Positions 48,448 through 63,683 of a DNA stretch of 64,000 nucleotides are shown piece by piece. Each line of letters starts with the position of its first letter. Positions within the stretch are counted from its first letter, which is position 1. The position numbers and the translations under genes are program-made. The notes beneath the pieces were generated by a model. That model had not been told where the DNA came from. It made no database searches and saw nothing but the letters and a program-made list of their open reading frames with translations. Source of the stretch: Escherichia phage vB_EcoM_REC; sequence record OM386667.1; one strand, written 5' to 3'.

Positions 48448-48455
48448 TTTCTCTC

Positions 48456-49019
48456 CTAAATAGTTTTACTGTGATCATGACAGTGTAATAAATGATGTAT
48501 AGACCGTTGAGGATTTGTTTGACCTAATCTGTAAATGTGAAACAGATACATTCCCCGCATCAATCCTAACCTCTTTCCTTTTTCATGTAAAGTGCGAGAG
48601 AAAATTAAGTCGAATTGGATAGATTTTTCTTCGAAAGGAATTTCATTCCACAATGATTTTCTAAAAAGCAAGAAGAAACCTGCCAGAGGTGTTCCGAAAG
48701 GAACTTCTTCAACACTCACTTTATGATATTCTCTTGCAATCTTAGCATATTCTATATGGTTTAGAATATCTGGATCATCGTTAATTTGGTTAGAGAAAAG
48801 CTGATAACCACTGCCTAACCTGTTACAAGTTGCACCTATTACATCAAAAGGCGGGTTTGACATAACAAGCTCTTCAAGCATAGATGGTTGATCAGGTAGG
48901 AGGAACATTGTATCGGTATCTCTTAAACACACCCAACTATCATCTGGAAGAACGGCAATGGCTTTATTGATAGCCTTGCCGATATTTCCTGTCAGATAGG
49001 GAGTAATATAATAAATCAT
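48456..49019 (-). CDS. putative glycosyltransferase-like protein (GT-A-like)
   Basis: 187 aa; WVCLRDTDTMFL (DxD-like). Confidence 0.35.
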   Translation of the reverse strand: MIYYITPYLTGNIGKAINKAIAVLPDDSWVCLRDTDTMFLLPDQPSMLEELVMSNPPFDVIGATCNRLGSGYQLFSNQINDDPDILNHIEYAKIAREYHKVSVEEVPFGTPLAGFFLLFRKSLWNEIPFEEKSIQFDLIFSRTLHEKGKRLGLMRGMYLFHIYRLGQTNPQRSIHHLLHCHDHSKTI

Positions 49020-49035
49020 TCTCCCCTCCGTTATA

Positions 49036-49227
49036 TTAACTGTCAGCTACAATCCCACGTTTAATCATTTCTTGTTGAATCTGGATCACACGATCTCGTG
49101 CTTCCATATATTCTTTAAAAGATTCTTGGAGATGGTCACGAGCTACATCCCGTAGTTTAATCAGCTTGTCGTTTGTCACTTCTTGAAGAGAGATTTCGCC
49201 AGTTTCATTGGTCCCAAGCGTTTTCAT
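49036..49227 (-). CDS. hypothetical small protein
   Basis: 63 aa ORF. Confidence 0.3.
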   Translation of the reverse strand: MKTLGTNETGEISLQEVTNDKLIKLRDVARDHLQESFKEYMEARDRVIQIQQEMIKRGIVADS

Positions 49228-49483
49228 TTACAACCTCCTTAATAGCTACTGCACAGTTCTTACAAATACATTGACCTTTGTTCTTAGAAATTTCAATGTA
49301 AGGTTCATTTTCGTTTTCTCCGCGTCGTGAGTCGTATATTACTGTATTGAAGCAGACAACGCAAATGTTTTTAATAACGACATATTTTTGCACTTTCTGT
49401 TTAGTGCGAAAATTGACTTCAATGACTTCTCCCATCAATGAATCTCCCCTAAAATGTTGTTTTGAGACATTACTGCGGAGCAT
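49205..49483 (-). CDS. hypothetical Cys-rich small protein
   Basis: CVVCF...CICKNC zinc-ribbon-like; true start may be internal. Confidence 0.3.
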   Translation of the reverse strand: MLRSNVSKQHFRGDSLMGEVIEVNFRTKQKVQKYVVIKNICVVCFNTVIYDSRRGENENEPYIEISKNKGQCICKNCAVAIKEVVNENAWDQ

Positions 49484-49719
49484 TCTACAGCATCATGAGT
49501 CCTTGCAAAACGCTCCCACAACACAGCATCTACTTTAAGAACCATACAAGGATAAATACTGTCGTTGATCATATCAATGCTATATTTATCTACATCCTTT
49601 TCATCTTCCATAAACAAAGTAGCGTATGCTTCCAAATGCTTACGGGTGTAGTATACGTCCTCTTCGGTAAGACCGACAACCAGGTAACTTGCTACAACAA
49701 CAGTATTATCTTCTTGCAT
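49435..49719 (-). CDS. hypothetical protein
   Basis: ORF 49435-49782 trimmed to the ATG at 49719 (RBS AAAGGGGAG), which abuts the upstream stop. Confidence 0.3.
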   Translation of the reverse strand: MQEDNTVVVASYLVVGLTEEDVYYTRKHLEAYATLFMEDEKDVDKYSIDMINDSIYPCMVLKVDAVLWERFARTHDAVECSAVMSQNNILGEIH

Positions 49720-49720
49720 T

Positions 49721-50242
49721 TTAACTCCCCTTTGGTAGATAGAAACCATGCACTTTATCTCGATAAACAAGACGCATATCACGTTCCCAGTGTGTCCTTA
49801 TATTCCGTTTCTTGAAGTATAGAGCACCTTTAGTAACATCTAAAACAGACCGCAATTCAGGAAAATGTTTCTCTAAATAAAGTAAACGCTCCGCTATTGC
49901 TTTTGCTTCCTGCCACTTATCTTTCTCTGTTACGTTAAAAGTTTTCGCATATGAGAATTGTCCTTTCTGGAACAAGACTCCTCTGACTGTGTTAGGGAAG
50001 TAGGTATCATTTCTTCTGTTGATTACCACATTCCCAACGGCATTCATTCCTTTTTTACCCAGACCGCGACCTTCTGCGTAAATTGCACAAGCTAATAGAA
50101 TTTTATCATTATATTGCTTTGTACATTTGTGAACTACTTTAGCGGTTTTTACGTTTGCAGCTTCGGCTTTCGCCACAACAGGTGTAAATGTAAAAGCAGT
50201 TAAGGATAGTAACGCAACTGTTACAAAGTTTTTTATCAGCAA
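49721..50242 (-). CDS. secreted cell-wall hydrolase (SleB-like domain)
   Basis: 173 aa; N-terminal signal peptide (VALLSLTAFTFTPVVAKA); CAIYAEGRG...GMNAVGNVVINRR resembles the SleB-type hydrolase domain; TTG start with AAGGAGG RBS. Confidence 0.6.
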   Translation of the reverse strand: MLIKNFVTVALLSLTAFTFTPVVAKAEAANVKTAKVVHKCTKQYNDKILLACAIYAEGRGLGKKGMNAVGNVVINRRNDTYFPNTVRGVLFQKGQFSYAKTFNVTEKDKWQEAKAIAERLLYLEKHFPELRSVLDVTKGALYFKKRNIRTHWERDMRLVYRDKVHGFYLPKGS

Positions 50243-50274
50243 ATTTTGCCTCCTTTTTAAGTTAACGAATTTCT

Positions 50275-50303
50275 AGTATAACACGATAGAGGCTTTATTG
50301 CAA
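50275..50303 (-). promoter_or_regulatory. sigma70-like promoter candidate on minus strand (TTGCAA, 17 nt spacer, TATACT)
   Basis: Reverse complement reads TTGCAA...TATACT upstream of the hydrolase gene; overlaps a GC hairpin (50304-50323) downstream of TerD. Confidence 0.4.
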
Positions 50304-50341
50304 GAGGGGGATTTCTCCCCCTCAAAATCATTTGTTAATTA

Positions 50342-50944
50342 TTATGGACATTCATACCATTCTTTTTTACCACCGAAGGCCATCACCACATCACAAATAT
50401 CCAGACCAGCTTTACCTACACCATATGCTTTCAGCTTCCATTCCCCATCTTCACGAACCAAGGAAGCCACGTGGCAGATTGTGTTGCCAGCTACTTCAGG
50501 AGCCAGGAAGTCAAAATCCAGAATTTCCACATTGCGCTCGGAGTCGAAGATTTTAAGCATACCTTCAGAAGCATGACCAAAACGTTTCAGACCTGTATCA
50601 TCATCAATGGTCAGAACAAAGGCAATCTCTTGTGCATCAGGAGAGATTTTAGCCAAAGTAATATCAATCTGCTCCATGCTGCCAGTTCCATCACGAACAT
50701 CGTCACCAGCGAAGGTAGAACGTTCAGGATCAAACTTGTTAGCATAGCAAACCAGATGACGTGCAGACAGCATTTCAGGATTACCAGCGGCATTGTGACG
50801 ACAAACCAGTGCACTTACATCCAGATCCAGTTTAGAATCAGATTTCCAAGAGAATTCCAGGCGCAGTTCTTTCAGAGCCGGAGCAACTTTCTTCAGGGAA
50901 ATTTTTTCGCTAGAGCCTTTTTTCAGGGAAATTTTATCAGTCAT
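50342..50944 (-). CDS. terD: TerD-family stress protein
   Basis: 200 aa; N-terminal ISLKKG...ISLKK; DLDVSALV; calcium-binding-like GDDVRDGTGSMEQ; C-terminal EWKLKAYG; overall pattern matches TerD domain. Confidence 0.8.
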   Translation of the reverse strand: MTDKISLKKGSSEKISLKKVAPALKELRLEFSWKSDSKLDLDVSALVCRHNAAGNPEMLSARHLVCYANKFDPERSTFAGDDVRDGTGSMEQIDITLAKISPDAQEIAFVLTIDDDTGLKRFGHASEGMLKIFDSERNVEILDFDFLAPEVAGNTICHVASLVREDGEWKLKAYGVGKAGLDICDVVMAFGGKKEWYECP

Positions 50945-50959
50945 CTTTTGTCTCCTCTA

Positions 50960-51229
50960 TTATTTAAGTGTAATACCAGTTACAGTCAATTCTACTTCCA
51001 AAAGCTTAGATGTGTTTTGGATTGATACTAATTGTGCATGATGGTTTAGTTCTACAGCAGAATAATCATTTTCCCCATCATCTACTTTTAAATAAACAAT
51101 GATTTCACTAAGGTCTAAACCATTTTCGTCAAATGCATTTTCATAGACGAAAGTATCTCCTACATCCAAATCTTTAATGGTAAGGCATCGTTTATTTACT
51201 TTTTGCTCATCAATTTCGAAGTTTAACAC
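50960..51229 (-). CDS. small hypothetical protein, paralog A (DLDVGxTF...ITLK family)
   Basis: GTG start with AGGAGGAAG RBS; paralogous to 52251-52529. Confidence 0.45.
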   Translation of the reverse strand: MLNFEIDEQKVNKRCLTIKDLDVGDTFVYENAFDENGLDLSEIIVYLKVDDGENDYSAVELNHHAQLVSIQNTSKLLEVELTVTGITLK

Positions 51230-51458
51230 TTCTTCCTCCTAATGTTATCTCCGGTTTGTATATACGAAGAATTATAGCATTTTCATTTTCTTTGTCAACC
51301 CATTCTTCATAATCGGGCCATACATGAATCTCCACTCTACTTACAATATCTTCCATTCGCACAGTCCCAATGAAATACTCTTTGAGACTGCGCATAATGA
51401 AAGCTTCTCTCTCGCGCCAATAATTTTCTATGACTTGAGAGGCAAGCTCGTCGATCAT
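51210..51458 (-). CDS. hypothetical protein
   Basis: 82 aa ORF. Confidence 0.35.
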   Translation of the reverse strand: MIDELASQVIENYWREREAFIMRSLKEYFIGTVRMEDIVSRVEIHVWPDYEEWVDKENENAIILRIYKPEITLGGRSVKLRN

Positions 51459-52249
51459 TTTTTAGCACCTACTTTAACAACCCACTCTCCGAACTCTTCA
51501 GATAAGAGTTTGTCATAAAGCTCTGAATCTGTCAAGTCTAAATCTTTAATGCCAATAAAACCAACATTATCATAAGCATTTGCCAGTTCTTTCAGGAACC
51601 CAAACTTCTCATTACCAACGCCAACCATGAACCAATAAATAGGTTTATTCTTATTCTCTTCAATAAGACGACGAACAGCACTAGGATCACCATTCTCACC
51701 ATCCGTCTGGAAGAATACAACACCAGGGGTAACGTCAGCACCTGGTTCAGATACAGCTACAACTTTTTCACGCTCTACAGACACTGTTTCAGTTTTACCA
51801 AGCAGACGATTAAAGAAGCCTTTCTTTGGAGCCTCCTCTTGTACCACTTGTTTAGTGGTAATATATTTGGTAACAGTGCCAAAATACTCACCGTAGATAT
51901 CTGCCATTACAGGGGCGTAATTTGTTCCACCTCCGATACGAACATTACGCATACATTTACCAACATAGTCATCGTAAACGTCTGCTGTTGCTGGAGTAAG
52001 CTCTTGGGAACTCGTATTGAAGGCCCACATATCAATTTGTTGATTATCGTCGAACAGCATACCAAAAGGAAGCAGTTTACCTACAAAATCACTCACTACC
52101 CCACTAGAATATAGACCATGCATACTACCAGAAATATCTAGAGCACATGCTACACGAAGAACAATCTTACCTTCATTCAGGTTCTTATTCTTTTTCAGAG
52201 AGAAAGCAAGGTTTTCTTGACGTTTTTTCAGGCTGATTTTCTCGGACAT
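51455..52249 (-). CDS. vWA-domain protein (TerF/TerY-like) with TerD-like N-terminal ISLKK motif
   Basis: 264 aa; MIDAS-like motif ALDISGSM; N-terminus MSEKISLKK mirrors TerD N-terminus MTDKISLKK. Confidence 0.65.
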   Translation of the reverse strand: MSEKISLKKRQENLAFSLKKNKNLNEGKIVLRVACALDISGSMHGLYSSGVVSDFVGKLLPFGMLFDDNQQIDMWAFNTSSQELTPATADVYDDYVGKCMRNVRIGGGTNYAPVMADIYGEYFGTVTKYITTKQVVQEEAPKKGFFNRLLGKTETVSVEREKVVAVSEPGADVTPGVVFFQTDGENGDPSAVRRLIEENKNKPIYWFMVGVGNEKFGFLKELANAYDNVGFIGIKDLDLTDSELYDKLLSEEFGEWVVKVGAKK

Positions 52250-52250
52250 A

Positions 52251-52529
52251 TTATTTCTCCTTCTTAAGTGTAATATTGGTAACTTCTAAATCTACTTCCA
52301 CCATATTTGTATCTGGTGGGATGCAATGAGTATAGCCTCGTTGTGCTAGTGATCCATTAATACAAATCGCACTGTTTGTGGAATTTTTAATGAACACCAA
52401 GTTACGGTAGGTATCCAACCCTGCGTCTTCATAGGCATCATAATACATGAATGTTGCCCCTACGTCAAGATCTTCGAAAGCAATAGGTAAATCTTGACTT
52501 TTTTCTTCTTGAATATTGAATCTAAACAC
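52251..52529 (-). CDS. small hypothetical protein, paralog B (DLDVGxTF...ITLK family)
   Basis: ORF 52251-52595 trimmed to the GTG at 52529 (GAGGAGG RBS); from there it aligns with paralog A. Confidence 0.45.
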   Translation of the reverse strand: MFRFNIQEEKSQDLPIAFEDLDVGATFMYYDAYEDAGLDTYRNLVFIKNSTNSAICINGSLAQRGYTHCIPPDTNMVEVDLEVTNITLKKEK

Positions 52530-53085
52530 GCATACCTCCTCTACCAATTTTGAAGCCCAAATCGTAAGCTTCCTTAGTGATCTTTTGTAACTCACTTATA
52601 GGAAGTGTTACAAGAGGATCATCTTCTTCAATTTCCATCTTGTCATCTTCTGTTTCAATGAGAGTATTATGCACTTTGTGATAAGGGTTGTCAACACGTT
52701 TAAACTTATTCTTTTCTGTGCTGAAAAAACAATCTGGATCTTCTTCACCATCACCCCAACCTTGGTTAGGATCTCCGTCAGATTGTTCTGTAGGGATTTC
52801 ACCTGTAAAGTACTCTTCCAGCACCATAGCGATACCGTCCCTTGGATTTGAGGAATGCATCAAATCACAAACCTTACTCCAATCCATAGCCCATTCAAAT
52901 CGTTCACGAACACCATTTTCATCCTCCTTTCCAGAGAAAACACAACCATAACTATCATAGTTCCCATACATCTCTTCAATAACAACACCGTCCTTCAAAA
53001 GAAAGAGGTAGCAAGGTGATCCGTCGAAAGAAGTAGAAAGGGCAGCTTTGCCCGATTCTTTGCACAAAAAGCTAAAACAACCCAT
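52522..53085 (-). CDS. hypothetical acidic protein
   Basis: 187 aa ORF. Confidence 0.4.
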   Translation of the reverse strand: MGCFSFLCKESGKAALSTSFDGSPCYLFLLKDGVVIEEMYGNYDSYGCVFSGKEDENGVRERFEWAMDWSKVCDLMHSSNPRDGIAMVLEEYFTGEIPTEQSDGDPNQGWGDGEEDPDCFFSTEKNKFKRVDNPYHKVHNTLIETEDDKMEIEEDDPLVTLPISELQKITKEAYDLGFKIGRGGMRV

Positions 53086-53483
53086 TACAAACCCTCCTTC
53101 AGATTATCAAGAGCTACAGTGGTTTCACAAAATTCTCCATAAGCTTTATGATGTTCCAGAAAAGCTTCGGGTCCACCCCAGTCATTATCTTGTGTATTCC
53201 AGCCATCAATAAAAGCATCTTCAATGATTGTGATCAGTTCCTGTCGAGTCAGCGTAATGGTATCAGGTTTCTGCGTAGTTTCCACACGGAACCCTGGTTC
53301 TTCATAAAAACCTTTAGTTACAATGGACTCTAACTCTTCTGCATCACAGAGGAAGTAGCCACAAAGATAACACCAACCGTCACCATCTTTCATTACTTCA
53401 TAAACTTCACCACTTGCTAACTTAGTGAAAAGAGTAGGGTCTGTTACTGTAAGTTTTAAAAGAATACCTGTTGGATTATACAT
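53085..53483 (-). CDS. hypothetical protein
   Basis: 132 aa ORF, GAGGAGGAAG RBS. Confidence 0.4.
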   Translation of the reverse strand: MYNPTGILLKLTVTDPTLFTKLASGEVYEVMKDGDGWCYLCGYFLCDAEELESIVTKGFYEEPGFRVETTQKPDTITLTRQELITIIEDAFIDGWNTQDNDWGGPEAFLEHHKAYGEFCETTVALDNLKEGL

Positions 53484-53649
53484 CTTCTTCCTCCTCTAAA
53501 ATATGGAACCCGTAATTACAATAATCCTGAAAGGTTTCGTGTGCAAGATCTTCTATATCCTCTTGAGACATATCATCTTCAATTTCGATATCCACAACCT
53601 CATTGCATCCACACCAAGCAGTTTCAATATTCACTCGTAATATTTTCAT
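53476..53649 (-). CDS. small acidic hypothetical protein (57 aa, below ORF-track cutoff)
   Basis: ATG at 53649 overlaps the upstream TAA (TAATG coupling); translation MKILRVNIETAWCGCNEVVDIEIEDD...LEEEEDV. Confidence 0.3.
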   Translation of the reverse strand: MKILRVNIETAWCGCNEVVDIEIEDDMSQEDIEDLAHETFQDYCNYGFHILEEEEDV

Positions 53650-53849
53650 TACTCCTCCTCCTCCTCATTGAAGTCAATATCTGCAAGGAGTTCGAATTTA
53701 CGGAAGTTACGACAACCTTCATAAATATAACAATCACGACAAACTGCTAGAACACTTGGGGGATATATGCCTCCCATCGGTGCGAATCGTTTTTCGTCAT
53801 CATAACGGACACCAATGTCTTCATCAATTATATAGATACGGATTCTCAT
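53649..53849 (-). CDS. small hypothetical protein
   Basis: 66 aa; CRDC...C; ends NEEEEE. Confidence 0.3.
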   Translation of the reverse strand: MRIRIYIIDEDIGVRYDDEKRFAPMGGIYPPSVLAVCRDCYIYEGCRNFRKFELLADIDFNEEEEE

Positions 53850-54958
53850 TTACCAAGCCCTCGTTTCACAGCAGCTACCATCCCGTCTTCCAGAGATTGA
53901 ACTTCATTAATATAATCAACACGAGCAGCACGGGCTTCCGTATTGATGCGGTTAGTTTCTTCCAACATCTTAACCAAGTTTTCCTGATCGTGACGCAGAG
54001 TTTCAATATCCAACACTTGACGGTTAGCCAGTGCTGCTGCTTCGATCTGATTCTGTGTGGCAAGATCGCTACCCAGTTTAATTGCCAGGTTAAATTCATC
54101 AAGAACGTTATTCTGCGTCTCTGCTGCTTTCATTTGACGTAAGCTCTCGATATACATTGAGAAGTTAGCAGAGTAAGCAGGAATAACATTATTTACTATG
54201 TTACGCGCAGATCGCATTAAGCTTGCAGAAACTTTTTGCATACCTTGTACACGCGGTCCCATTTGGACACACAGTAGGCGCAATGCTTTTAAATCTGCAA
54301 TACGAATCTCCAGAAGATCCAAAGTATCTCGGATCACTTGTCGCTGTTCTACTGCATCTTCTGGAAGAGCAGCCAAAGCTTGTTCTTCTTTTTCATAGGT
54401 TGCTGTTAGAAGCTGCATATCTCGGTTCAAACTTGCAGCATATTGTCCAATAGCTTGATGTAGCTTTTCAAGATATACCAAGGAATCTTCTTCTTTGCGA
54501 ATATCCATTTGAAGGTTCTTTACCAACTCTTCAATACGGTTATTAACATTATCAAACTCCCCGAACAGGTCTTCTTTCATACCCATAACTTTTTTAATGA
54601 GTTTAGTAATACCCTTACTTTGTTTAATAGAGTTTGGATCAAGTTGTTTTGCCTGTTTAATCAAAGCTGTGAGTCGTTCACTCATCTGATCGCCTTGATT
54701 ACTACGTTGATGTTTTAACACCTCGGCATTCAAGGAACGCAAGGTTGTTCCTGCCTCTGCCCCAATCTCTTCAATCTCTTGTCGGGTCATAGAAGGCAAA
54801 ACTGGAACTTCTTGCGGTGCCGCTGGTGCATAAACAGGACTGGCATCTAACACGCTTGGAGCGAATACAGATTTACTTGCATCTGTTGTTGCAGCAAATA
54901 CGCTCATTTCAGGCTTCTTCTGACCACCAGTAGCTGCTTTTAAAAATGGACTTGTCAT
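53846..54958 (-). CDS. telA: TelA-like toxic-anion-resistance family protein
   Basis: 370 aa, largely helical; length and composition fit the TelA/KlaA family; sits in a TerD/TerC neighbourhood. Confidence 0.6.
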   Translation of the reverse strand: MTSPFLKAATGGQKKPEMSVFAATTDASKSVFAPSVLDASPVYAPAAPQEVPVLPSMTRQEIEEIGAEAGTTLRSLNAEVLKHQRSNQGDQMSERLTALIKQAKQLDPNSIKQSKGITKLIKKVMGMKEDLFGEFDNVNNRIEELVKNLQMDIRKEEDSLVYLEKLHQAIGQYAASLNRDMQLLTATYEKEEQALAALPEDAVEQRQVIRDTLDLLEIRIADLKALRLLCVQMGPRVQGMQKVSASLMRSARNIVNNVIPAYSANFSMYIESLRQMKAAETQNNVLDEFNLAIKLGSDLATQNQIEAAALANRQVLDIETLRHDQENLVKMLEETNRINTEARAARVDYINEVQSLEDGMVAAVKRGLGK

Positions 54959-55545
54959 TCTTCATTCTCCTCTTCTGCATCTCTTATATATGGTGAAACA
55001 CCGTACTCTTTAGCTACTTTAACCCAATCGTCCCATTTATACAACCATAATTTTCCTTCGGTCCCTTCTTTATCTGATTTCAACCACATATTAGGTTGCT
55101 TACCTGGGTACATGCGATTAGGTTTACGATTATAACCTCTAACACATCTTGTCGCAAACCTATCTACCAGAACAAGAACATATTTATATTCGTGGTTCAA
55201 CGGCTCTTTGGAAGTGGCTTTAGGATTAGCCCCTAATTCTGCTGCCAGTTTTTGCCAATGAGCACCGTGCCTACTAAACTTACCCATACAACCATCAATA
55301 GCATGAGCAATTTCGTGCTTCATTGTATCCACGATCATATCTCTTGTGGAGTTCTTATGCAAGTGCCAATTTACAACAACAATTTTATCTCGGTAGTTGC
55401 ACCAACCGAAAGAGTTATTCACTTTGTTTCTAACACAAGCTTTATATCCTGCTTCACGTAACATGTTGTAGTAAACAGGAAAATCTTCTTTTATTTCCTG
55501 CATCACTTCCCACCACAAGAGTTGCAAGTCTCTCTCGGTATGCAT
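54955..55545 (-). CDS. SprT-like zinc metalloprotease domain protein
   Basis: 196 aa; HEIAHAIDG (HExxH) then SRHGAHWQKLAAELG, typical of SprT-like domain. Confidence 0.6.
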   Translation of the reverse strand: MHTERDLQLLWWEVMQEIKEDFPVYYNMLREAGYKACVRNKVNNSFGWCNYRDKIVVVNWHLHKNSTRDMIVDTMKHEIAHAIDGCMGKFSRHGAHWQKLAAELGANPKATSKEPLNHEYKYVLVLVDRFATRCVRGYNRKPNRMYPGKQPNMWLKSDKEGTEGKLWLYKWDDWVKVAKEYGVSPYIRDAEEENEE

Positions 55546-55548
55546 AAC

Positions 55549-56142
55549 TTACACCTTAAAAGCGAAATGCGTGGTCGTGGCTTCAAAATCAGGGCCAGAT
55601 AAACTTGCACTGAAATCTGAAATATTTGTAATTAAAAAGCTTTTATGCATACCTAACACAGCCACGCTTTCAATATCTTCTACTAACATTTCAATCATGT
55701 TAGAAACATGGCTGAACGTATAGTTTTGTTTTTTGATGGTGTAGAAAGAAAGACTCCCACCTGCTGTATAAGATACCTCTTCAAAATCTTTAATCGTATA
55801 TTGTGTGCCATCAGTAAAGAAAATGGTAGCTTTATTAGTAGCACGTTTCTTGTTTTTTGGTCCTTTTTTACGTTTACTGCGAGTAGGCAAACCGTTTGGG
55901 AACACCATAGCTACAAATTCTTCAGGAGAAACCTCCTTACCGAAATCATAACCGTAAGAAACAGCGTCTATAAACTCGTCGTCTTCATTTTTAAAATAAT
56001 GAAAATAGGGCCAATTTGAGAGATTATCGAGCATCTTATGCTCATCCACAGCAGAGAACGTATCCCTCAAAGCACGTGTGATTTGCAAAGCATTAGGCAA
56101 ACTTTTAACACCTGTAATGGAAGTACGAATAGAAATTGTCAT
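55549..56142 (-). CDS. hypothetical protein
   Basis: 197 aa ORF. Confidence 0.4.
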   Translation of the reverse strand: MTISIRTSITGVKSLPNALQITRALRDTFSAVDEHKMLDNLSNWPYFHYFKNEDDEFIDAVSYGYDFGKEVSPEEFVAMVFPNGLPTRSKRKKGPKNKKRATNKATIFFTDGTQYTIKDFEEVSYTAGGSLSFYTIKKQNYTFSHVSNMIEMLVEDIESVAVLGMHKSFLITNISDFSASLSGPDFEATTTHFAFKV

Positions 56143-56156
56143 TGTTTTTCTCCTTA

Positions 56157-56594
56157 TTAACGTCGCTTGCTACGAGATGAACTCTTTTTACTTAAAGGGC
56201 TATTGTAAGATTTACGAGTTGTATAGCTACTATTTGTTTTAAAAGTTTGTCTCGGCTTTTCATAAGTTTTTATCTCTTGTTTAGGCTTACCATAAAAATT
56301 AGTTTTCGGTTTAGGTGTATTATAATGCTTATTAATAATCGTTCTGTTATCGTTATAATCCCCACTGCTACGATTACTACCGCCACTCATCATATGCCCT
56401 AACAACATACCTGTAGCAAACTCACCAACACCGCTACTACTAGAACCGCCACCATTGTTGATAATAGTTGTATCTCCGTCAGATCCTTGTTGAGCGTATT
56501 GTTGAGGAGGTTGTTGGTATTGTGCAGGATTTGTTTCATCCTCGCAAGCTGTTAAAAAGATACAACCAATTAAAATCAGGGCTAGTTTTTTCAT
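56157..56594 (-). CDS. putative lipoprotein
   Basis: ORF 56157-56669 trimmed to the ATG at 56594 (RBS GAGGAAA); MKKLALILIGCIFLTAC with lipobox LTAC; Gln/Pro/Gly/Ser-rich. Confidence 0.55.
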   Translation of the reverse strand: MKKLALILIGCIFLTACEDETNPAQYQQPPQQYAQQGSDGDTTIINNGGGSSSSGVGEFATGMLLGHMMSGGSNRSSGDYNDNRTIINKHYNTPKPKTNFYGKPKQEIKTYEKPRQTFKTNSSYTTRKSYNSPLSKKSSSRSKRR

Positions 56595-56777
56595 ATTTGC
56601 TTTCCTCGTTTTGGCTATTAATACATCTGTGTTTGAAATCTCCAGAGAAGCAATAAAGTTGCTCTCCATCTCGGTATAAACTCACTTTACTGCCGTTGAT
56701 TACGCTTGTCAATACAAAAATTACAACAAACAACCCTATTGCAAAACAGATATTTTCAAACACAACCAACAAGTATT

Positions 56778-57128
56778 TCATTTTAAAAACACCTCATCAT
56801 CAGTCTCATTATCCCAGAAGAACAAATCCCAACCATTTGGATCATTCCATTTGGCTGCTGGAGAAGTCCATATTTGCTCAATATCAATATTCAAAACTTC
56901 ACCGTTTCGTTTTGAAACAGCTTTAGTTAATTCCCAACGAGATACAGGCTCTACTTCTCCTGAACCACTTCCACAACAAGCTACAACATTAGGAGGCAAA
57001 TTAATTGGATCTTTGGTCACAATCATAACGCTTACCCCAGGGTAAACTTTTGAAAGATAATCTGAAATGTAATCCACATCACCAGATAAATCCCAAACAA
57101 GTTCTTGAATTTCATCAAAATTACTCAT
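56778..57128 (-). CDS. hypothetical protein
   Basis: 116 aa ORF with Trp-rich C-terminus. Confidence 0.4.
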   Translation of the reverse strand: MSNFDEIQELVWDLSGDVDYISDYLSKVYPGVSVMIVTKDPINLPPNVVACCGSGSGEVEPVSRWELTKAVSKRNGEVLNIDIEQIWTSPAAKWNDPNGWDLFFWDNETDDEVFLK

Positions 57129-57146
57129 AAGTCTCTCCTATAAAAT

Positions 57147-57164
57147 AGCCTCCCGAAGGAGGCT
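57147..57164 (-). terminator. stem-loop/terminator downstream of TerC gene
   Basis: Stem AGCCTCC/GGAGGCT, loop CGAA. Confidence 0.45.
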
Positions 57165-57170
57165 CATTTA

Positions 57171-58145
57171 TTAAACAGTAGCTTCTTCTTTTTCAGGGAA
57201 GATAAAGCTTGCAATAACACCAAGAGCTAATGTGCCCAGGACAATATACATACTAATAGTTGGATCAATGTGCGCTGGCAGGAAGCTCATTTTTTCATGT
57301 AACGTTTCTGCAAACGGGTGATACATTAGTTTAACACCTACAAACACCAGAACCACAATAACTGCTTTCTCCAAGTGAACCAGATACTTCAGTGCAACAC
57401 TAAGAACAAAGAACAGAGCACGTAGACCTAAGATTGCACATAACATCGAAGAGAATACAAGCAGAGGTTCTTGTGTTACTGCGATCACTGCCGGAACAGA
57501 ATCTACTGCAAAGATTACATCAACCATTTCCATCACGAATACGCAAACCAAAGCTGGAGTTGCTACACGAACACCATTTTCGATTGTGAAGAACTTCTCC
57601 CCATCCATTTTATTAGATACAGGGAACAGTTTACGAACAATACGGGTAGCCCAGTGTTTAGAGTAATCAACTTCTGCGTCATTATTTCCAGCAAATACCA
57701 TTTTAGCTGCACAGAAAAGGATGACCGCACCGAAGAAGATATTAACATACCAGCCCAAACTTAACAAGTAAGTGCCTACTGCTACAAACACACCTCGGAA
57801 GACAATCGCACCTGCAATACCCCAAAGTAGAATCTTGTGCTGCAAGTGTGTGCTTTTAATACCAAAACTTGCGAATACTGCTACAAATACTACCAAGTTA
57901 TCTACCGACAAAGATTTTTCCAACACATATCCACTTAAAAACAAGTTAGCAAAATCGGCACCATGTTGGAAGTATACAAAACCATAATAAGCTAATGATA
58001 CACCAATCCAAAAGATCGACCAACCAACTGCGGATTTGAATGAAATTTCTTTATTTTCTTTGTGACCAAAGAAATCAATACCAATAGACAATGCTAAAAT
58101 ACCAACTAAAACAACTACATCAATAATTGGGAAACCAAGTTGCAT
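57171..58145 (-). CDS. terC: TerC-family integral membrane protein
   Basis: 324 aa, multiple hydrophobic helices; LEKSLSVDNLVVFVAVF matches the TerC signature. Confidence 0.8.
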   Translation of the reverse strand: MQLGFPIIDVVVLVGILALSIGIDFFGHKENKEISFKSAVGWSIFWIGVSLAYYGFVYFQHGADFANLFLSGYVLEKSLSVDNLVVFVAVFASFGIKSTHLQHKILLWGIAGAIVFRGVFVAVGTYLLSLGWYVNIFFGAVILFCAAKMVFAGNNDAEVDYSKHWATRIVRKLFPVSNKMDGEKFFTIENGVRVATPALVCVFVMEMVDVIFAVDSVPAVIAVTQEPLLVFSSMLCAILGLRALFFVLSVALKYLVHLEKAVIVVLVFVGVKLMYHPFAETLHEKMSFLPAHIDPTISMYIVLGTLALGVIASFIFPEKEEATV

Positions 58146-58224
58146 TCTTTTCTCCTCTCTTTGCGGGGAACTATTCCCCGCTTCATGTGATATATCTTAC
58201 TCTTTTTAAGAACTATGTCAACAC

Positions 58225-58446
58225 TTATTTTGTTGAATGAGAGGAAAAGATTCCTCGTAATACAGCCAGAATAAACGAAACACAAACCACGGTCCAGAAG
58301 GTTACTGGGACAGTGATATCTGCATGACCCATAACTTCAGCAACATAGTTGTAAGCCAGCAACAGTAACCAAGCTGGAATCAAACTAAGCATAAAAGCAA
58401 TAACAAAAAAGCTTACCACTGCAACAATACCTGCAAAAACACCCAT
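58225..58446 (-). CDS. small membrane protein
   Basis: 73 aa, two hydrophobic helices. Confidence 0.4.
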   Translation of the reverse strand: MGVFAGIVAVVSFFVIAFMLSLIPAWLLLLAYNYVAEVMGHADITVPVTFWTVVCVSFILAVLRGIFSSHSTK

Positions 58447-58458
58447 ACTAATCTCCTC

Positions 58459-58932
58459 TTAAAGTTTATAAATAGTCACATCGTGACCTGTTTTTACTAA
58501 AGTTTCTTCAATCATCACTTGGATGATAGCCCAATTACCTCCAGCATATCCAGCGCCAATCATAGGTAAGCCGATCTTACATTTTTGGTCACGGAGAAGC
58601 AAATCGTTAGCCATAGCTATTAGTGCATCGTAAAGTGCATCATAGTCCAACTGACGACCTTTAGCATTGTATCCGTAACGGTATTGCCCGTATAGATTAT
58701 ATACCAAAGGGTCTGATTGTTCGTCTGGCACCCCTAAACTAAAACAACCTAGTTTACTTTGATCACCAGCCGTTGTGTCTAAGTCTGCTGCATATGCGTA
58801 AGGAAATGCTTGTTTGATTTGTGGGGCAATACCTGCCCCCATATTACACATACAGTTGCAACAATGAGCAATAACAGTTACTTCACCTGCTTTAGCGGCA
58901 TCAATAAGATTACCTGTTTTCATTTTAAGCAT
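58459..58932 (-). CDS. macro-domain protein (ADP-ribose binding/processing)
   Basis: ORF 58459-59037 trimmed to the ATG at 58932 (GGAG RBS after PRTase stop); VTVIAHCCNCMCNMGAGIA and GLPMIGAGYAGGNW fit macro-domain motifs. Confidence 0.6.
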   Translation of the reverse strand: MLKMKTGNLIDAAKAGEVTVIAHCCNCMCNMGAGIAPQIKQAFPYAYAADLDTTAGDQSKLGCFSLGVPDEQSDPLVYNLYGQYRYGYNAKGRQLDYDALYDALIAMANDLLLRDQKCKIGLPMIGAGYAGGNWAIIQVMIEETLVKTGHDVTIYKL

Positions 58933-58945
58933 TTTTAGCTCCTTA

Positions 58946-59773
58946 TTACAGAATGTGTTGTTTTGTGTAACGATCCAAGAATTCAAAGTTTTCAGCATAC
59001 TTTGAAATTCGGTTGTAACCTTCTCCCAAGCATCCAAAGAAAAGTTGCTCTACATAGTAATGTGGCAATTGGCTAAGAATGATTTTGAAGTCTTCATGAT
59101 TTTGGCCCATAAGATACTTAATAGGACGAACAAGACACTGTGCATCACGTTCTTCACTAATCATTTTAACAAACGCTTCTGGTGTATTAATGTAGTTAAA
59201 ATTCAGTTTAGCTTCGGTATCTGCTTGATTACCTTCGTATTTTGCAAAATACAAGAAGTAAACATCATTTTTAACTTGATTTTCATCAAGGATCTCAATC
59301 AGTTTGTCTTCATGCGTTCCAGTGATATTTACATCATCAATGAATACAAGCTTCTTATCACCCCAGAATTCTTTGTTGCAGTAGAATGTATCACCATCAA
59401 TAAGTTTCTTACGACTAGCTTTATCCAAGAAACCATAATCGTTGATATAGCTAACTTTACGATGAATAATGTCCAGTTCTGCTGAACGACCTTGATCATA
59501 TTGTGATTGCAACATATTAAAATAATTAATAAAATGATCTGTCATCATTGTTGCAGCATTATGCACATGGTTATAAGGAGAAGGAATGATAACAAATTGT
59601 TCCCCAATATGTTTCATTGCCACTTGAGCAAAAAACTGAAGTGCCAATTCTTTACCCATACGACGCGCAGCTTGGTTACTACCAAATTTCAATTTTGAAT
59701 AATCTTGGATATCAAAAGTAGCAGTTTCCAGGTCATCAAATTTATTTGCAAAAATTTGAGTTTGATTACGCAT
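58946..59773 (-). CDS. phosphoribosyltransferase-like protein
   Basis: 275 aa; KKLVFIDDVNITGTHEDK resembles the PRPP-binding motif of type I PRTases. Confidence 0.6.
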   Translation of the reverse strand: MRNQTQIFANKFDDLETATFDIQDYSKLKFGSNQAARRMGKELALQFFAQVAMKHIGEQFVIIPSPYNHVHNAATMMTDHFINYFNMLQSQYDQGRSAELDIIHRKVSYINDYGFLDKASRKKLIDGDTFYCNKEFWGDKKLVFIDDVNITGTHEDKLIEILDENQVKNDVYFLYFAKYEGNQADTEAKLNFNYINTPEAFVKMISEERDAQCLVRPIKYLMGQNHEDFKIILSQLPHYYVEQLFFGCLGEGYNRISKYAENFEFLDRYTKQHIL

Positions 59774-60422
59774 TTACAATTTCTCCTCTTTTAAGTTTCT
59801 CTAGTAAGTCGTTAGGGTTCTTAATATGACAGAAGTTAAATCCTAAGTCAACACATTTTCCATCATATTCTTCACTATCGCCTACGTGCAACACTTCGTG
59901 CCCTAACAGAGGGATCGGAGAATACGTGAGCGTGCGAGCAAAGAATCGCGGATCTGGTTTACAAAGTAAAGCTTCATCCGAGAAATGGGTGAACTCAAAA
60001 CAATTCCAACTATCAAACTTACAAGCACGACGCAGGATATCCCCTGATATGAAGTTGGTATTGCTCTTAATACTCAAATCATAACGCCCCGAAAGATACA
60101 GCAAGTACATCGGCAGATCCACGGCTACGTGTGGTGGAAACTTAAGGAACCACTGTTCACACTCGAAACGAAGCTTTGCAGACTTCCAAGGCGTTATCCC
60201 AAGTTCAGAACCAAGTCTTTCCCAGGCGTATGCTGCACACTCGGCTTTGCCTTGAAGTGCTGCATTATCCAGTTCCTTTTTGATCTTCTTATAAGCTGCT
60301 CTTGCTTCCACTTCCGTAATATCTCCATATTTTGCGATAGTCCAGGCTCGCATGTCTGCGTAATTGGAGTTTGCTGTGATCAGTGTGTTCCATACATCAA
60401 AAGAGATATGTTTAATAGTCAT
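59766..60422 (-). CDS. HAD-superfamily hydrolase/phosphatase
   Basis: 218 aa; motif I FDVWNTL, KPDP, and LHVGDSEEYD (motif III-like). Confidence 0.6.
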   Translation of the reverse strand: MTIKHISFDVWNTLITANSNYADMRAWTIAKYGDITEVEARAAYKKIKKELDNAALQGKAECAAYAWERLGSELGITPWKSAKLRFECEQWFLKFPPHVAVDLPMYLLYLSGRYDLSIKSNTNFISGDILRRACKFDSWNCFEFTHFSDEALLCKPDPRFFARTLTYSPIPLLGHEVLHVGDSEEYDGKCVDLGFNFCHIKNPNDLLEKLKRGEIVNA

Positions 60423-60423
60423 A

Positions 60424-61029
60424 TTAAGCCCACCATGCGTCTAAGTTAAGATTACTGTCTACCACAACTTGTTCTATGTGGTAGCCTTTTATCTGTATCC
60501 CACTGTTCAAGAGCATATCATACGCTTCATTGAAACGCAACTTATCTTCTGCGGAATATAAGCGAGCATTATAAAATCGGTAATCAATTTCTTCAGCATT
60601 AGAAGAAATACGGAAGAAGTTTGTTTCTACTTCGGGATCACTTGCTGAAGTCTTAATGTGAACTTCTCCATAATTTTCTTTACTTAGATCCATGAAAAGA
60701 ACACAGGCAACATGTTTAAACATTCGTTCCAGTTTGTAACGAACAACATTGAAACCTGCATTCTCAAGTTTTTCTACACACTGCAACATTAAAGTAGTGT
60801 CGAGATCGCTTTGATACTTTGTTAACATACGATCACGTTGAGACTTTGTATCCCGATGTAAATCAATTGTTGTGCATTTGGCACCAATAATCTTAGCTGC
60901 TTTCATCAACTCTTCAGAACTAACGTTAGATAAAGTAAGATGAAAATGGGCTTTCCACACTTTTTTAGCAGGGACACCAAAAGATTTATCCCCACTATTC
61001 GGCATGTTGACTACTACACTATGTTGCAT
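60424..61029 (-). CDS. hypothetical protein (possible enzyme of the same module)
   Basis: 201 aa; HFHLTLS, no confident family assignment. Confidence 0.4.
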   Translation of the reverse strand: MQHSVVVNMPNSGDKSFGVPAKKVWKAHFHLTLSNVSSEELMKAAKIIGAKCTTIDLHRDTKSQRDRMLTKYQSDLDTTLMLQCVEKLENAGFNVVRYKLERMFKHVACVLFMDLSKENYGEVHIKTSASDPEVETNFFRISSNAEEIDYRFYNARLYSAEDKLRFNEAYDMLLNSGIQIKGYHIEQVVVDSNLNLDAWWA

Positions 61030-61044
61030 TACTTATCTCCTCAC

Positions 61045-61236
61045 TTAAAATGGAAGTCTTTGAAGTTCATCTCCTCCGATATCAAGTAATTTAGCAACAT
61101 CTCGATCAGAAAGCAACTCTTTTCTTTGTAAAATATCCACAAGGGTTGCAAGAATGTCCTTAACGTCCCGATCACTGTTCTTCAAAAGTTCTCCTGCCGT
61201 CCCTACTCTATCTCCTACAGCAAAATATGTAACCAT
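61045..61236 (-). CDS. small hypothetical protein
   Basis: ORF 61045-61269 trimmed to the ATG at 61236 (AGGAGG RBS). Confidence 0.3.
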   Translation of the reverse strand: MVTYFAVGDRVGTAGELLKNSDRDVKDILATLVDILQRKELLSDRDVAKLLDIGGDELQRLPF

Positions 61237-61249
61237 GAAACCTCCTAAG

Positions 61250-61720
61250 TTAATCTGATTGCCAACCACTTGCCGTTTTGGTCCATAATCTTTGATTATC
61301 TGACCCTCTGAAAGGTTTTGTAGTTGGATTGTTTATTTCATACTTTCCGTCTACAATAATGTCAACAAGATTTTTAATATACAAAGGCACTTCCTCAAAA
61401 GTATATCCTGTATACACCATTATATCTTTGCTTGACCCATAAACGTCTCTAACCTTTTCTATAAGGTTTTTAACATTGTAAATATTCTGCGGATCTAATG
61501 GCTCTCCTCCTAAAATTGTTAAACCTTTTACAAACGGTCTTGACAAATCTTTTAAAACTTGCTCTACATTTTCGTGAGTAAACGGTTTCCCATAAGAATA
61601 AGACCAGGCTTTTTGGTTAAAACAGCCACGACAACCGTGGCTACAACCACTAACCCAGAGGGAGCACCTAACTCCCTCACCATTAATAAGATCTACAGGT
61701 TCATATCCTGCAAAATTCAA
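61250..61720 (-). CDS. nrdG: anaerobic ribonucleotide reductase activating protein (radical SAM)
   Basis: 156 aa; cluster CSHGCRGC; immediately downstream of nrdD with overlapping stop/start. Confidence 0.8.
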   Translation of the reverse strand: MNFAGYEPVDLINGEGVRCSLWVSGCSHGCRGCFNQKAWSYSYGKPFTHENVEQVLKDLSRPFVKGLTILGGEPLDPQNIYNVKNLIEKVRDVYGSSKDIMVYTGYTFEEVPLYIKNLVDIIVDGKYEINNPTTKPFRGSDNQRLWTKTASGWQSD

Positions 61721-63582
61721 AGATGTTTCTCCCTTTGCAAAACTTCCTGCATTTTACCTTTGTTGTAAGGCCGTGAATTAGGGGCAGAAAGATACCCTGA
61801 TACACGTCTAACTACAGAAATAGTTTCTTCTTCATGGTTGCCACAATCAGGACACTCAAACCCTTTAGCCGTTGCCTTAAATTCTCCATGAAAACCACAC
61901 TTAAAGCATTGATCCACGGGCTGATTAATACCAAAATAGTGAATATGTTCATAAGCGTAGTCTACTAAAGTCTCCAAAGCTTCTAAGTTATTCTTTAAGT
62001 TTGGTGTTTCGACATAACTTATGTTACCACCATTACTAATCTGTGCAAAACCTGCTTCATAATCCCATTTTTCAAAAGGATTTGTTACCAACCATACAGG
62101 TTGATGAAAAGAGTTAGTAAGATAGTCTCTTTCTACCAAACTTGGGTATTTTTCATTTAAAGCTGTTGCAAACTTATAGCACAAAGATTCTGCTGGAGTT
62201 CCATAGAGACTAAACGCCAGCTTAGATCGTTCTTTAAACACAGCACACACATCTTTCATATGTTGCAGAATGCTTTTACCAAGTTCCTTTTTATCTTTTT
62301 CTTCTGGATAAAGGATTTCCAAAGCTTCGGCAAGACCTACATAACCAATACTAATAGAAGCATAACCACCTTCAAACAAAACACCAATTTCATCATTGGC
62401 ATTTAAACGCGCTAAAGCCCCTTCCATGAAAAGAATAGGGTTTTCAGATGCTTTGGTATGTCTGATACGGTTTACACGTAGCATGTGAGCATCGTAGGCT
62501 ATCTCCATATGTTTATTAAGAAGATCGGTGAAAGATTCTCCTTTACTTCTCGCTTCCGCAGCGATCAGAGGTAAGTTGATAGAAACTACTCCAAGGTTGA
62601 ATCGTCCATCGTATTTTTCTCCTTGTTCGGTGGCATAGTACGACAAAAAGGAACGACAACCCATACTCGTAACAGTACCATCTGCTGATCCCGTAACTTC
62701 TTTGTTCAAAGGAACAGAAATAAAATCTGGATAAATACGATCAGCACAACATGCCAAAGCTTGTTGCTTAAGGTCATAGTTAGGATCACTAGGTTTCATG
62801 TTAACACCTTCTTGTAAAAAGAAAATAACTTTAGGGAATACAGGCGTTACATGATCTTTGCCTAGACCGTTACTATGCACTTTAAGATAGTTAGCTGTAA
62901 TCATTCTGCCAAAAACAGAGGTATCCAGACCCATACTGATTGTAATAAAAGGAGATTGTCCATTAACACTCATTAAAGTATTAACCTGATACAAGAGAGT
63001 TTGCATAGCATCGTATACATCTTGTTCGGTCATTTCTAGGGCTTCTTTCCTTGCATAACAACCGTAGCGACGTTTGGTTATCTCCATGTTTTTAAGGAAA
63101 CTAGCTTCAACATAAGGACTAAGACCTTTATCAATGTGCGCACACGTGAAACTAGCTTCAACATAAGGACTAAGACCTTTATCAATGTGCGCACACGTCT
63201 GACCTCCATACTGACTGGAGGCAACAGCTTGGATAATTTGAGTTAGCACTGTGGTAGCTACCCCAATAGATTTTGGTTTTTCTATCTGTGCGGCTCCGAT
63301 CTTAAAACCATTCTCTAACATATCTTGATAATTAACAAGACAACAGTTTGTAAGAGGAGAGAGTAGATAATCCAAGTCGTGAATATGTCCAAAACCTTCT
63401 GTATGCCACTCTGACAAGTTTTTTGGCAGTATCTGTGTCATTGCCATATGTTTGCTTAAAATCCCCGCCAAGAGATCCCTATGCGTGTTAACGAGGTGGG
63501 AAGGTTTGTTTGCATTCTCTCTAGTGTATGTTTCTGAAGTGCGATCTAAAAAAGAAAAAACATCTTGGTACAAATCTTTCAT
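61717..63582 (-). CDS. nrdD: anaerobic ribonucleoside-triphosphate reductase (class III)
   Basis: 621 aa; C-terminal zinc ribbon CFKCGFHGEF...CPDCGNHEE and glycyl-radical-like RVSGYL; contains an in-frame 17-aa tandem duplication. Confidence 0.85.
   Translation of the reverse strand: MKDLYQDVFSFLDRTSETYTRENANKPSHLVNTHRDLLAGILSKHMAMTQILPKNLSEWHTEGFGHIHDLDYLLSPLTNCCLVNYQDMLENGFKIGAAQIEKPKSIGVATTVLTQIIQAVASSQYGGQTCAHIDKGLSPYVEASFTCAHIDKGLSPYVEASFLKNMEITKRRYGCYARKEALEMTEQDVYDAMQTLLYQVNTLMSVNGQSPFITISMGLDTSVFGRMITANYLKVHSNGLGKDHVTPVFPKVIFFLQEGVNMKPSDPNYDLKQQALACCADRIYPDFISVPLNKEVTGSADGTVTSMGCRSFLSYYATEQGEKYDGRFNLGVVSINLPLIAAEARSKGESFTDLLNKHMEIAYDAHMLRVNRIRHTKASENPILFMEGALARLNANDEIGVLFEGGYASISIGYVGLAEALEILYPEEKDKKELGKSILQHMKDVCAVFKERSKLAFSLYGTPAESLCYKFATALNEKYPSLVERDYLTNSFHQPVWLVTNPFEKWDYEAGFAQISNGGNISYVETPNLKNNLEALETLVDYAYEHIHYFGINQPVDQCFKCGFHGEFKATAKGFECPDCGNHEEETISVVRRVSGYLSAPNSRPYNKGKMQEVLQREKHL
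63097..63198. repeat. perfect 51-bp direct tandem duplication inside nrdD
   Basis: 63097-63147 and 63148-63198 are identical; encodes the duplicated peptide HIDKGLSPYVEASF. Confidence 0.9.
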
Positions 63583-63680: not shown

Positions 63681-63683
63681 GTT

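Follow-up and report, generated by a model that had tools for sequence, protein, structure and literature searches.

A conserved block of Ter-family genes beside a HAD–phosphoribosyltransferase pair in the virulent coliphage vB_EcoM_REC and its relatives

We analysed a stretch of 64,000 nucleotides (the window) from Escherichia phage vB_EcoM_REC (OM386667.1), a virulent 149-kb coliphage of the phAPEC8/phi92 group, and found that positions 50,342 to 61,029 hold a real, conserved and well-delimited block of minus-strand genes in which TerD, a TerF-type vWA protein, a TelA-like protein and an Alx-type TerC stand together with a phosphoribosyltransferase (PRTase_3) and a HAD-fold enzyme, besides a SprT-like protein, a macrodomain protein, a lipoprotein and several small open reading frames (ORFs; Table 1). 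Phage Ter modules as such are already described, and both the combination with PRTase and HAD genes and the idea of superinfection exclusion are in print (Iyer et al. 2021), so the initial annotation of this DNA cannot claim novelty for them. The block is 100% identical to the corresponding region of Escherichia phage vB_EcoM_ESCO37 (OM386659.1; Phapecoctavirus, Stephanstirmvirinae), and at least 80% of it is covered in 64 phage records in a database comparison. Its coordinates are exact ORF limits, namely the TerD stop (50342) and the start of a 201-aa ORF (61029), and the hairpin just past the TerD stop carries a terminator annotation in phage ASO2A. The region from about 36 kb to 64 kb is entirely minus-strand coding (GC skew), and the block is flanked upstream by nrdD, nrdG and a gene for a UvrD-type helicase, and downstream by genes for a SleB-like hydrolase, glycosyltransferases and a primase/helicase. 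GenBank records of the subfamily already carry the labels TelA-like, TerC, TerD family, phosphoribosyltransferase, HAD hydrolase and 'tellurite resistance'.

Profile matches (Table 1) bear out the initial assignments of TerD, the vWA protein, TelA and TerC. The nearest solved structure to the phage TerD is Klebsiella TerD (PDB 2KXT, 1.5e-15), a protein that binds Ca2+; in the alignment DLDxSA is retained, and the acidic stretch GDGDDE reads GTGSMEQ in the phage. Relatives of the vWA protein were found in Caulobacter, Brevundimonas, Rhizobium, Pseudomonas and Bacillus phages. The initial annotation had also given this protein a TerD-like N-terminus, which we reject, as the vWA protein and TerD have in common only the short motif (D/E)KISLKK, with neither a Pfam TerD match nor significant BLASTP similarity. 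TelA occurs in divergent form in jumbo and PhiPsa374-like phages, and no solved structural relative of it was found. TerC scores 319 bits against the NCBIfam model of the Alx subfamily (TIGR03718; cutoff 246). Among the 22 ORFs of 50342-61269, profile searches matched no TerB, and a single ORF belongs to the TerD family, TerA/TerZ/TerE paralogues not being found.

PRTase_3, a ComF-like type I enzyme, is carried by 156 phage records, and its assignment is likewise upheld: the phosphoribosyl pyrophosphate (PRPP) loop reads VFIDDVNITGTHE, and DDVxITGTHE is invariant across 15 aligned sequences. No relative of solved structure was found, nor any profile match to the orotate or purine phosphoribosyltransferase families; in the comparison with HPRT the PRPP loop alone matches (E=0.18). 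As for its partner, the 'HAD phosphatase' of the initial annotation stands as to the fold, given family-IA models and the conservation of motif I (FD(V)WNTL, nucleophile Asp; FDVWNTL in this phage), motif III (KP, Lys) and motif IV (HVGDxxxxD, acidic) in the 20 sequences, out of 22, that could be aligned, but phosphatase was an over-reading: the Asp+2 general acid/base is replaced by Trp, Tyr or Leu in the phage enzyme and all 20 aligned homologues, a pattern akin to haloacid dehalogenase and REG-2-like enzymes, so that phosphatase activity is not assured.

Comparison with phi92 (Justusliebigvirus) separates the core of the block from its lineage-specific genes. The order nrdD-nrdG-...-HAD-PRTase-macro-...-TerC-...-TelA-...-vWA-TerD is retained there, with amino-acid identities of 95% for TerC, 81% for TerD, 79% for TelA, 66% for vWA, 65% for PRTase and 49% each for HAD and the macrodomain. 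However, phi92 has no counterpart of the SprT-like protein, the lipoprotein or the 197-, 116-, 82-, 57-, 66- and 201-aa ORFs. The core is TerD, vWA, TelA, TerC, HAD and PRTase, whereas SprT, the lipoprotein and several other ORFs are lineage-specific. The initial annotation's 'whole set' therefore does not form one system: the SprT, lipoprotein, 197-, 116-, 82- and 201-aa genes are absent from phi92-type phages, the 187-aa family occurs without Ter genes, and the macrodomain adjoins PRTase in this subfamily only.

The tie between the Ter genes and the HAD–PRTase_3 pair recurs outside this subfamily. Further PRTase_3 loci were collected from phages (16 from IMG/VR, two metagenomic phage-like contigs, the annotated phi92, Xanthomonas phage XaC1 and a Rhizobium phage) and from 15 bacterial assemblies, one of them a Phapecoctavirus-like contig binned in a metagenome-assembled genome and the other 14 bacterial. 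In each of the 35 loci compared (21 phage, 14 bacterial), the gene immediately upstream of PRTase_3 is HAD. Of the 15 phage loci that belong to other lineages, seven have Ter genes no more than 10 kb from the pair; three of these seven show the compact arrangement TerC-X-TerD-Y-vWA-HAD-PRTase, and in two others TerD follows immediately after PRTase. Searches with phmmer and Pfam for a divergent TelA in the unknown proteins X and Y between the Ter genes (loci L006, L007) gave weak coiled-coil-type matches and no more. Two Bacteroidota genomes have two or three TerD genes beside HAD-PRTase, one of them TerC too, and Rhizobium, Caulobacter and Brevundimonas phages possess both HAD-PRTase and Ter genes, far apart. 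Since the order is kept in phi92 and in the 64 records, and adjacency is found in the seven other phage loci, the clustering is not due to chance. Thus the set is indeed tied to the PRTase/HAD pair, and the comparative-genomics link to which the initial annotation referred is borne out by Iyer et al. (2021).

A lone two-gene HAD-PRTase_3 unit, 38-41% identical to the phage enzyme, was observed in Rhizobium, Sinorhizobium and Ensifer genomes (L029-L038, L041), where no Ter genes lie within 10 kb; this context was dropped as a clue to function, the pair standing alone near repA on pRL10 (107669-109142), a symbiosis-type megaplasmid. In the metagenomic phage contig L007 (13029-14612) the Ter/HAD/PRTase genes are followed by genes for a nicotinamide mononucleotide (NMN) transporter of the PnuC type and an AAA_28 (NadR-like) protein, and in the Rhizobium phage L004 (6283-6855) HAD-PRTase is followed by an NMN adenylyltransferase/Nudix gene; these neighbours may hint at a link to NAD metabolism.

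The Ter genes are not recent host cargo, the origin that would have made the block an ordinary one in the eyes of the initial annotation. In tblastn searches, plasmid-borne TerD sequences reach no more than 36% identity to the phage TerD (31% for the TerD family of enterobacterial ter operons), and plasmid-borne TerC homologues reach about 50% at most; at the DNA level TerC shows no similarity to E. coli alx. Given this deep divergence, we rejected the idea that the genes were captured recently from the host. TerC is 95% identical to that of phi92 and about 73% to that of phAPEC8, and Phapecoctavirus has two TerC alleles, 95% and 73% identical to this TerC. Compared with phAPEC8 over 50000-64000, DNA identity is 97-100% (bar a 51-bp nrdD duplication) except in a mosaic segment at about 57200-58400, made up of the TerC gene with its promoter and of the 73-aa gene's 3' end, where it falls to 60-85%; with phi92, identity is 88% in this segment against 69-80% in the flanks. 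This pattern indicates that a TerC cassette with its own promoter and terminator was swapped between the two genera. TerC also occurs without other Ter genes in many further phages, including Cronobacter, Vibrio, Proteus and Pectobacterium phages.

The signals in and around the block are consistent with early expression from host-type promoters. The consensus promoter upstream of the 89-aa gene and TerD is the sole 12/12 sigma-70 match in the 64-kb window, against 0.10 expected, and locus L012 (about 76% DNA identity) has a perfect consensus promoter at the same position, its hexamers and spacing kept and its spacer diverged, which is good comparative evidence for promoter function. Sigma-70-type signals would fit transcription by host RNA polymerase and thus early expression. 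Upstream of TerC, the 79-nt gap contains a promoter-like site and a short hairpin, nothing more; a host-type promoter is annotated at this site in phAPEC8 and ASO2A. A manganese (yybP-ykoY) or pH-responsive riboswitch before the Alx-type TerC was considered and rejected, there being no Rfam match anywhere in the window.

The macrodomain and the 201-aa protein flank the pair and require separate treatment. The macrodomain named in the initial annotation is real: the protein aligns full-length with SCO6735 (PDB 5E3B) and further matches BT1257, TARG1 and DarG, its Pfam score (20.6 against a gathering score of 22) falling just under the threshold. The coding sequence is 58459-58932, and a longer 192-aa ORF with a TTG start was rejected. 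The Gln of 'LYGQYRY', which replaces the Lys of TARG1 and DarG, aligns with chain residue 105 of 5E3B, which corresponds to SCO6735 Gln85 by residue count with an assumed tag of about 20 residues. SCO6735 strips DarT-made ADP-ribose off thymidine in DNA and needs Gln85. The macrodomain is 49% identical between the two phage genera, adjoins PRTase only in this phage subfamily, and lies 7-8 kb away in two other loci. Because the nearest solved relative is SCO6735 and the aligned Gln is kept, an independent role against DarT is the most economical, and the macrodomain is probably a separate counter-defence gene. The 201-aa protein has invariant HxHxT and ExHxK motifs and 253 relatives by profile search; three tested relatives of about 340 aa have an N-terminal NUDIX domain, one has a RelA/SpoT-type HD_4 domain and one HTH_3. 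These fusions point to a nucleotide-associated domain family, which suits the place of its gene before HAD-PRTase in several lineages (L010-L012 and L026, upstream of HAD; absent from phi92-type phages). We rejected a 2H phosphoesterase, for which a bilobed fold with two HxT/S motifs would be expected. Two PADLOC models labelled 'AbiEi' (PDLC02277, PDLC02279) match the protein over its full length at 5e-13, an unexplained observation.

The identities of the proteins and their linkage being established, we tentatively regard the block, with a confidence that stops a little short of even, as a long-resident phage copy of an abbreviated Ter system that acts at the inner membrane, is coupled to HAD-PRTase_3 and serves rival exclusion or membrane protection. 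We infer a membrane complex, a ligand and a phenotype as follows. Host RNA polymerase would transcribe the block early in infection, and TerC, TelA, TerD and vWA would assemble at the inner membrane of the infected cell, where the complex might alter divalent-cation handling and membrane state; the cell would then turn refractory to DNA injection by superinfecting phages, to pore-forming colicins and to membrane-depolarising abortive-infection effectors, protections in keeping with the phage inhibition and colicin resistance classically seen with plasmid ter operons. PRTase would couple a base to PRPP, the atypical HAD enzyme would process the product, and the resulting nucleoside-like ligand would control the Ter complex or bind to it. 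Accessory or separate roles would fall to the neighbouring genes, namely those for the macrodomain, the 201-aa protein, SprT, the lipoprotein and the remaining small ORFs; the macrodomain would most likely take DarT-type ADP-ribose off DNA. In its boldest form, that the HAD-PRTase_3 pair, with its atypical HAD chemistry, makes a nucleoside-like molecule that activates or binds a phage TerC-TelA-TerD-vWA complex and so closes the cell to rival phages, colicins and membrane-targeting abortive infection, the proposal is rather unlikely; if true, the Ter system would gain its first defined ligand and mechanism from a tractable coliphage.

Several observations weigh against this abbreviated Ter system. 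Profile searches did not find TerB, TerA/Z/E, or the ATP-grasp and other biosynthetic enzymes of full bacterial systems, and the partial loss of the acidic stretch in the phage TerD may affect metal binding. With no general acid/base Asp in the HAD enzyme, the step from nucleotide to nucleoside is uncertain. Eight of the 15 phage loci and 12 rhizobial loci hold HAD-PRTase without Ter genes nearby; set beside the frequent adjacency elsewhere, they make the link recurrent across lineages but not obligatory. The block also lies among nucleotide-metabolism genes (nrdDG), as in locus L007, and the co-location may partly be an effect of a shared early region. The timing of expression is read from promoter consensus only.

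If the HAD-PRTase pair is looked at without the Ter genes, other explanations come into view. The 201-aa protein, HAD, PRTase_3 and the macrodomain might together destroy or rebuild immune signals derived from nucleotides, ADP-ribose or NAD, or repair ADP-ribosylated DNA, with Ter as a separate matter, which we consider a minority possibility: it would account for a macrodomain nearest to SCO6735, DarG and TARG1 with its catalytic Gln kept, for the fusion of the 201-aa family to NUDIX and RelA/SpoT-type HD domains, for the NMN-transporter, NadR-like or NMN adenylyltransferase/Nudix genes near HAD-PRTase in L007 and the Rhizobium phage, and for the many loci with no nearby Ter genes. However, the adjacency of macrodomain and PRTase is limited to this subfamily, the 201-aa gene is missing from phi92-type phages, PRTase_3 is of the ComF-like type I and not of the Nampt type, and TerD or vWA stands directly beside HAD-PRTase in several unrelated lineages, which argues for a functional tie to Ter. 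That same adjacency, together with the lone pairs on rhizobial plasmids, speaks against ordinary nucleotide salvage, in which PRTase and HAD would belong with the anaerobic ribonucleotide reductase and the Ter genes would be close by an accident of early-region layout. The block does abut nrdD and nrdG, ribonucleotide reductase genes lie upstream of Ter/HAD/PRTase in L007, and GenBank annotators label the PRTase 'orotate phosphoribosyltransferase'; yet the label finds no orotate or purine profile match (the HPRT PRPP loop only, at E=0.18), and a HAD hydrolase invariantly paired with the PRTase would reverse salvage, so we find this account decidedly improbable.

Taken from the side of the Ter proteins, the block might serve metal homeostasis with no role in conflict, TerC/Alx exporting or redistributing Mn2+, and TerD and the vWA MIDAS binding divalent cations, to tune ions for phage enzymes or the timing of lysis. 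TerC exceeds the curated cutoff of the TerC/Alx 'metal homeostasis' subfamily, TerD is homologous to the Ca2+-binding Klebsiella TerD (2KXT), the MIDAS motif is intact, and TerC both stands alone in many phages (Cronobacter, Vibrio, Proteus, Pectobacterium) and travels between genera as a self-contained cassette with its own promoter and terminator. We nevertheless hold this to be unlikely, as it leaves TelA and the recurrent HAD-PRTase link unexplained, Rfam gave no manganese riboswitch or pH element upstream of TerC, and plasmid ter operons confer phage and colicin resistance. Resistance of the infected host to tellurite or xenobiotics, as conferred by plasmid ter operons, is suggested by the gene names and the GenBank 'tellurite resistance' labels, and xenobiotic resistance during pseudolysogeny has been raised as a possibility (Iyer et al. 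2021), but it is scarcely credible for a phage group described as virulent, for which lysogeny has not been reported, and with TerB, TerA, TerZ and TerE missing; the authors of the PhiPsa374 study hold the same view of their own incomplete set.

The remaining ORFs of the block are of an accessory or uncertain nature. The SprT-like zinc metallopeptidase-fold protein noted in the initial annotation is supported by a score above the Pfam gathering threshold and an HExxH motif, with protease function as a prediction, and its gene is present in loci L011 and L012 and absent from phi92. The lipoprotein is supported by its signal MKKLALILIGCIFLTAC and lipobox, read from the real start at 56594; phi92 lacks it and encodes another protein with a signal peptide in its place. 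The two phrog_11278 paralogues are 33% identical (E=3e-13); paralogue B is 62% identical in phi92, which holds one phrog_11278 copy, and one GenBank record labels the family 'RNA ligase' with no visible support. The 187-aa ORF was rejected as a Ter component, its family being widespread in phages without Ter genes and having no relative of solved fold.

Table 1. Genes and predicted signals of the block at 50,342-61,029 and its boundary, in window positions
Feature	Position	Strand	Evidence and remarks
G+C-rich hairpin GAGGGGGAgaaaTCCCCCTC	50304..50323	-	Directly past TerD stop; 3' block boundary; no clear T-run
TerD-domain protein, 200 aa (core)	50342..50944	-	PF02342 3e-28
phrog_11278 paralogue A, 89 aa	50960..51229	-	PHROG 7e-45; directly upstream of TerD; ribosome-binding site AGGAGG, GTG start
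82-aa ORF	51210..51458	-	phrog_22387 only; not found in phi92
Consensus sigma-70 promoter TTGACA-16-TGcTATAAT	51271..51298	-	42 nt upstream of GTG of 89-aa gene; 89-aa gene and TerD
TerF-type vWA protein, 264 aa (core)	51455..52249	-	PF10138 4e-37; MIDAS motif DISGS
phrog_11278 paralogue B, 92 aa	52251..52529	-	PHROG 5e-50; directly upstream of vWA; GTG start 52529; ribosome-binding site GAGGAGG
187-aa protein, widespread phage family	52522..53085	-	Neighbour, not Ter-specific; 76% identical in phi92
Promoter-like site TTGACA-17-CATAAT (11/12)	52666..52694	-	Upstream of paralogue B and vWA; consensus match only
Three small ORFs, 132, 57 and 66 aa	53085..53849	-	PHROG match or none; 132-aa ORF partly conserved in phi92
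TelA-like protein, 370 aa (core)	53846..54958	-	PF05816 3e-33
SprT-like zinc metallopeptidase-fold protein (accessory)	54955..55545	-	PF10263 4e-9, 36.7 bits vs gathering 25.6; HEIAH
197-aa ORF (accessory)	55549..56142	-	phrog_27550; not in phi92
Predicted lipoprotein, 146 aa from MKKLALILIGCIFLTAC (accessory)	56157..56594	-	Lipobox LTAC; start as annotated in ESCO37
81-aa single-pass membrane protein and 116-aa ORF	56536..57128	-	Hydropathy; 81-aa product 49% identical in phi92
Intrinsic terminator AGCCTCCttcgGGAGGCT + ATTTTAT	57147..57164	-	Past TerC; also annotated in ASO2A
TerC/Alx-family membrane protein, 324 aa, ~9 hydrophobic segments (core)	57171..58145	-	PF03741 1e-38
Promoter-like site TTGACA-16-TAAGAT	58194..58221	-	Precedes TerC; followed by hairpin in 5' untranslated region
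73-aa protein, two hydrophobic segments	58225..58446	-	Hydropathy; kept in phi92
Macrodomain protein, 157 aa, ALC1-like SCO6735/BT1257/DarG/TARG1 class	58459..58932	-	PDB 5E3B 5e-12; PADLOC DarG 5e-10
PRTase_3 (ComF-like type I phosphoribosyltransferase), 275 aa (core)	58946..59773	-	PF15610 1e-41, 143.6 bits vs 28.7 threshold
HAD-fold family-IA enzyme, 218 aa, PRTase_3 partner	59766..60422	-	NCBIfam DREG-2 2e-8; Pfam below gathering score
201-aa protein, predicted tandem ferredoxin-like fold (accessory)	60424..61029	-	AlphaFold2 pLDDT 82

Some observations concern the surroundings of the block and its database records. Directly downstream, the minus strand at 47764-50242 encodes a SleB-like cell-wall hydrolase with a TTG start and a signal-like N-terminus, and, to judge from how related phages are annotated, three or more glycosyltransferases. 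These may act as host-surface modifiers. Upstream, nrdD (61717-63582, minus strand) contains a perfect in-frame 51-bp tandem duplication at 63097-63198 that repeats 17 aa (CAHIDKGLSPYVEASF and one residue). It is the sole difference from ESCO37 over 44342-64000, phAPEC8 also has no duplication, and natural variation, faulty assembly and an introduced change are all conceivable origins. Five records named 'Campylobacter phage' (MG065639, MG065645, MG065650, MG065656 and MG065689; 146-151 kb) hold the block at 96-100% protein identity, which is probably a matter of mislabelling or of contamination.

Known for decades and widely distributed, the Ter system has tellurite, phage and colicin resistance to its name and a mechanism still missing. 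Here a minimal version (TerC, TelA, TerD, vWA, HAD, PRTase_3) is found in virulent E. coli phages that are simple to handle and have numerous sequenced relatives, and natural variation, such as the two TerC alleles and accessory genes that some of the phages have and others lack, can be put to use. Owing to this minimal set, easy host and variation, deletion, expression and metabolite work would be straightforward, and could reveal the predicted nucleoside-like product and probe the superinfection-exclusion idea, while the macrodomain, of SCO6735 type, makes a concrete candidate phage enzyme against DarT. As phage Ter modules are already known, the value of the block lies in testability, not in discovery.

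Compared with SCO6735, DarG and TARG1, the phage macrodomain has neither a DarT partner nor the DarG C-terminal domain. The ter operons of plasmids and chromosomes (terZABCDEF of IncHI2 R478, Klebsiella and E. coli O157), together with kilA/telAB of RK2, have the TerD, TerC, TelA and TerF-vWA families in common with the phage block, and the bacterial operons give phage inhibition and colicin resistance besides tellurite resistance. The phage block, in contrast, is without TerB, TerA, TerZ and TerE, has one TerD paralogue and a TerC of the Alx subfamily, and its gene order is broken up by phage-specific small ORFs; its TerD is 31% identical to the TerD family of enterobacterial ter operons, and its TerC about 50% at most to plasmid-borne homologues. 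Among virulent phages, terC, terD, terF-vWA and telA have been reported in PhiPsa374-like Pseudomonas phages and in the Klebsiella phages phiKp34 and ZCKP1, the last of which is a Phapecoctavirus carrying this very block; these reports list four 'tellurite' genes with the HAD-PRTase link unmentioned, PhiPsa374-like phages were not among our PRTase_3 matches, and published accounts of ESCO37, BME3 and the O177 phages leave the block undiscussed. In the scheme of Iyer et al. (2021), which in its description of the Ter system follows Anantharaman et al. (2012), PRTase and HAD synthesise a signal, TerB and TerD bind the ligand, TerC sits in the membrane, and TelA and TerF-vWA lie beneath it. The same authors describe shorter Ter sets in Caulobacter jumbo phages and in some further tailed phages that are smaller but related, phAPEC8 and phi92 not being named, and propose a role in competition with superinfecting phages. 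Of their systems, that of Acinetobacter phage ME3 is set beside ours by its published description; ours belongs to a 149-kb virulent coliphage and not to a jumbo phage, but both unite TerD, TerC, a TerF-type vWA protein and TelA with PRTase/HAD in a phage genome.

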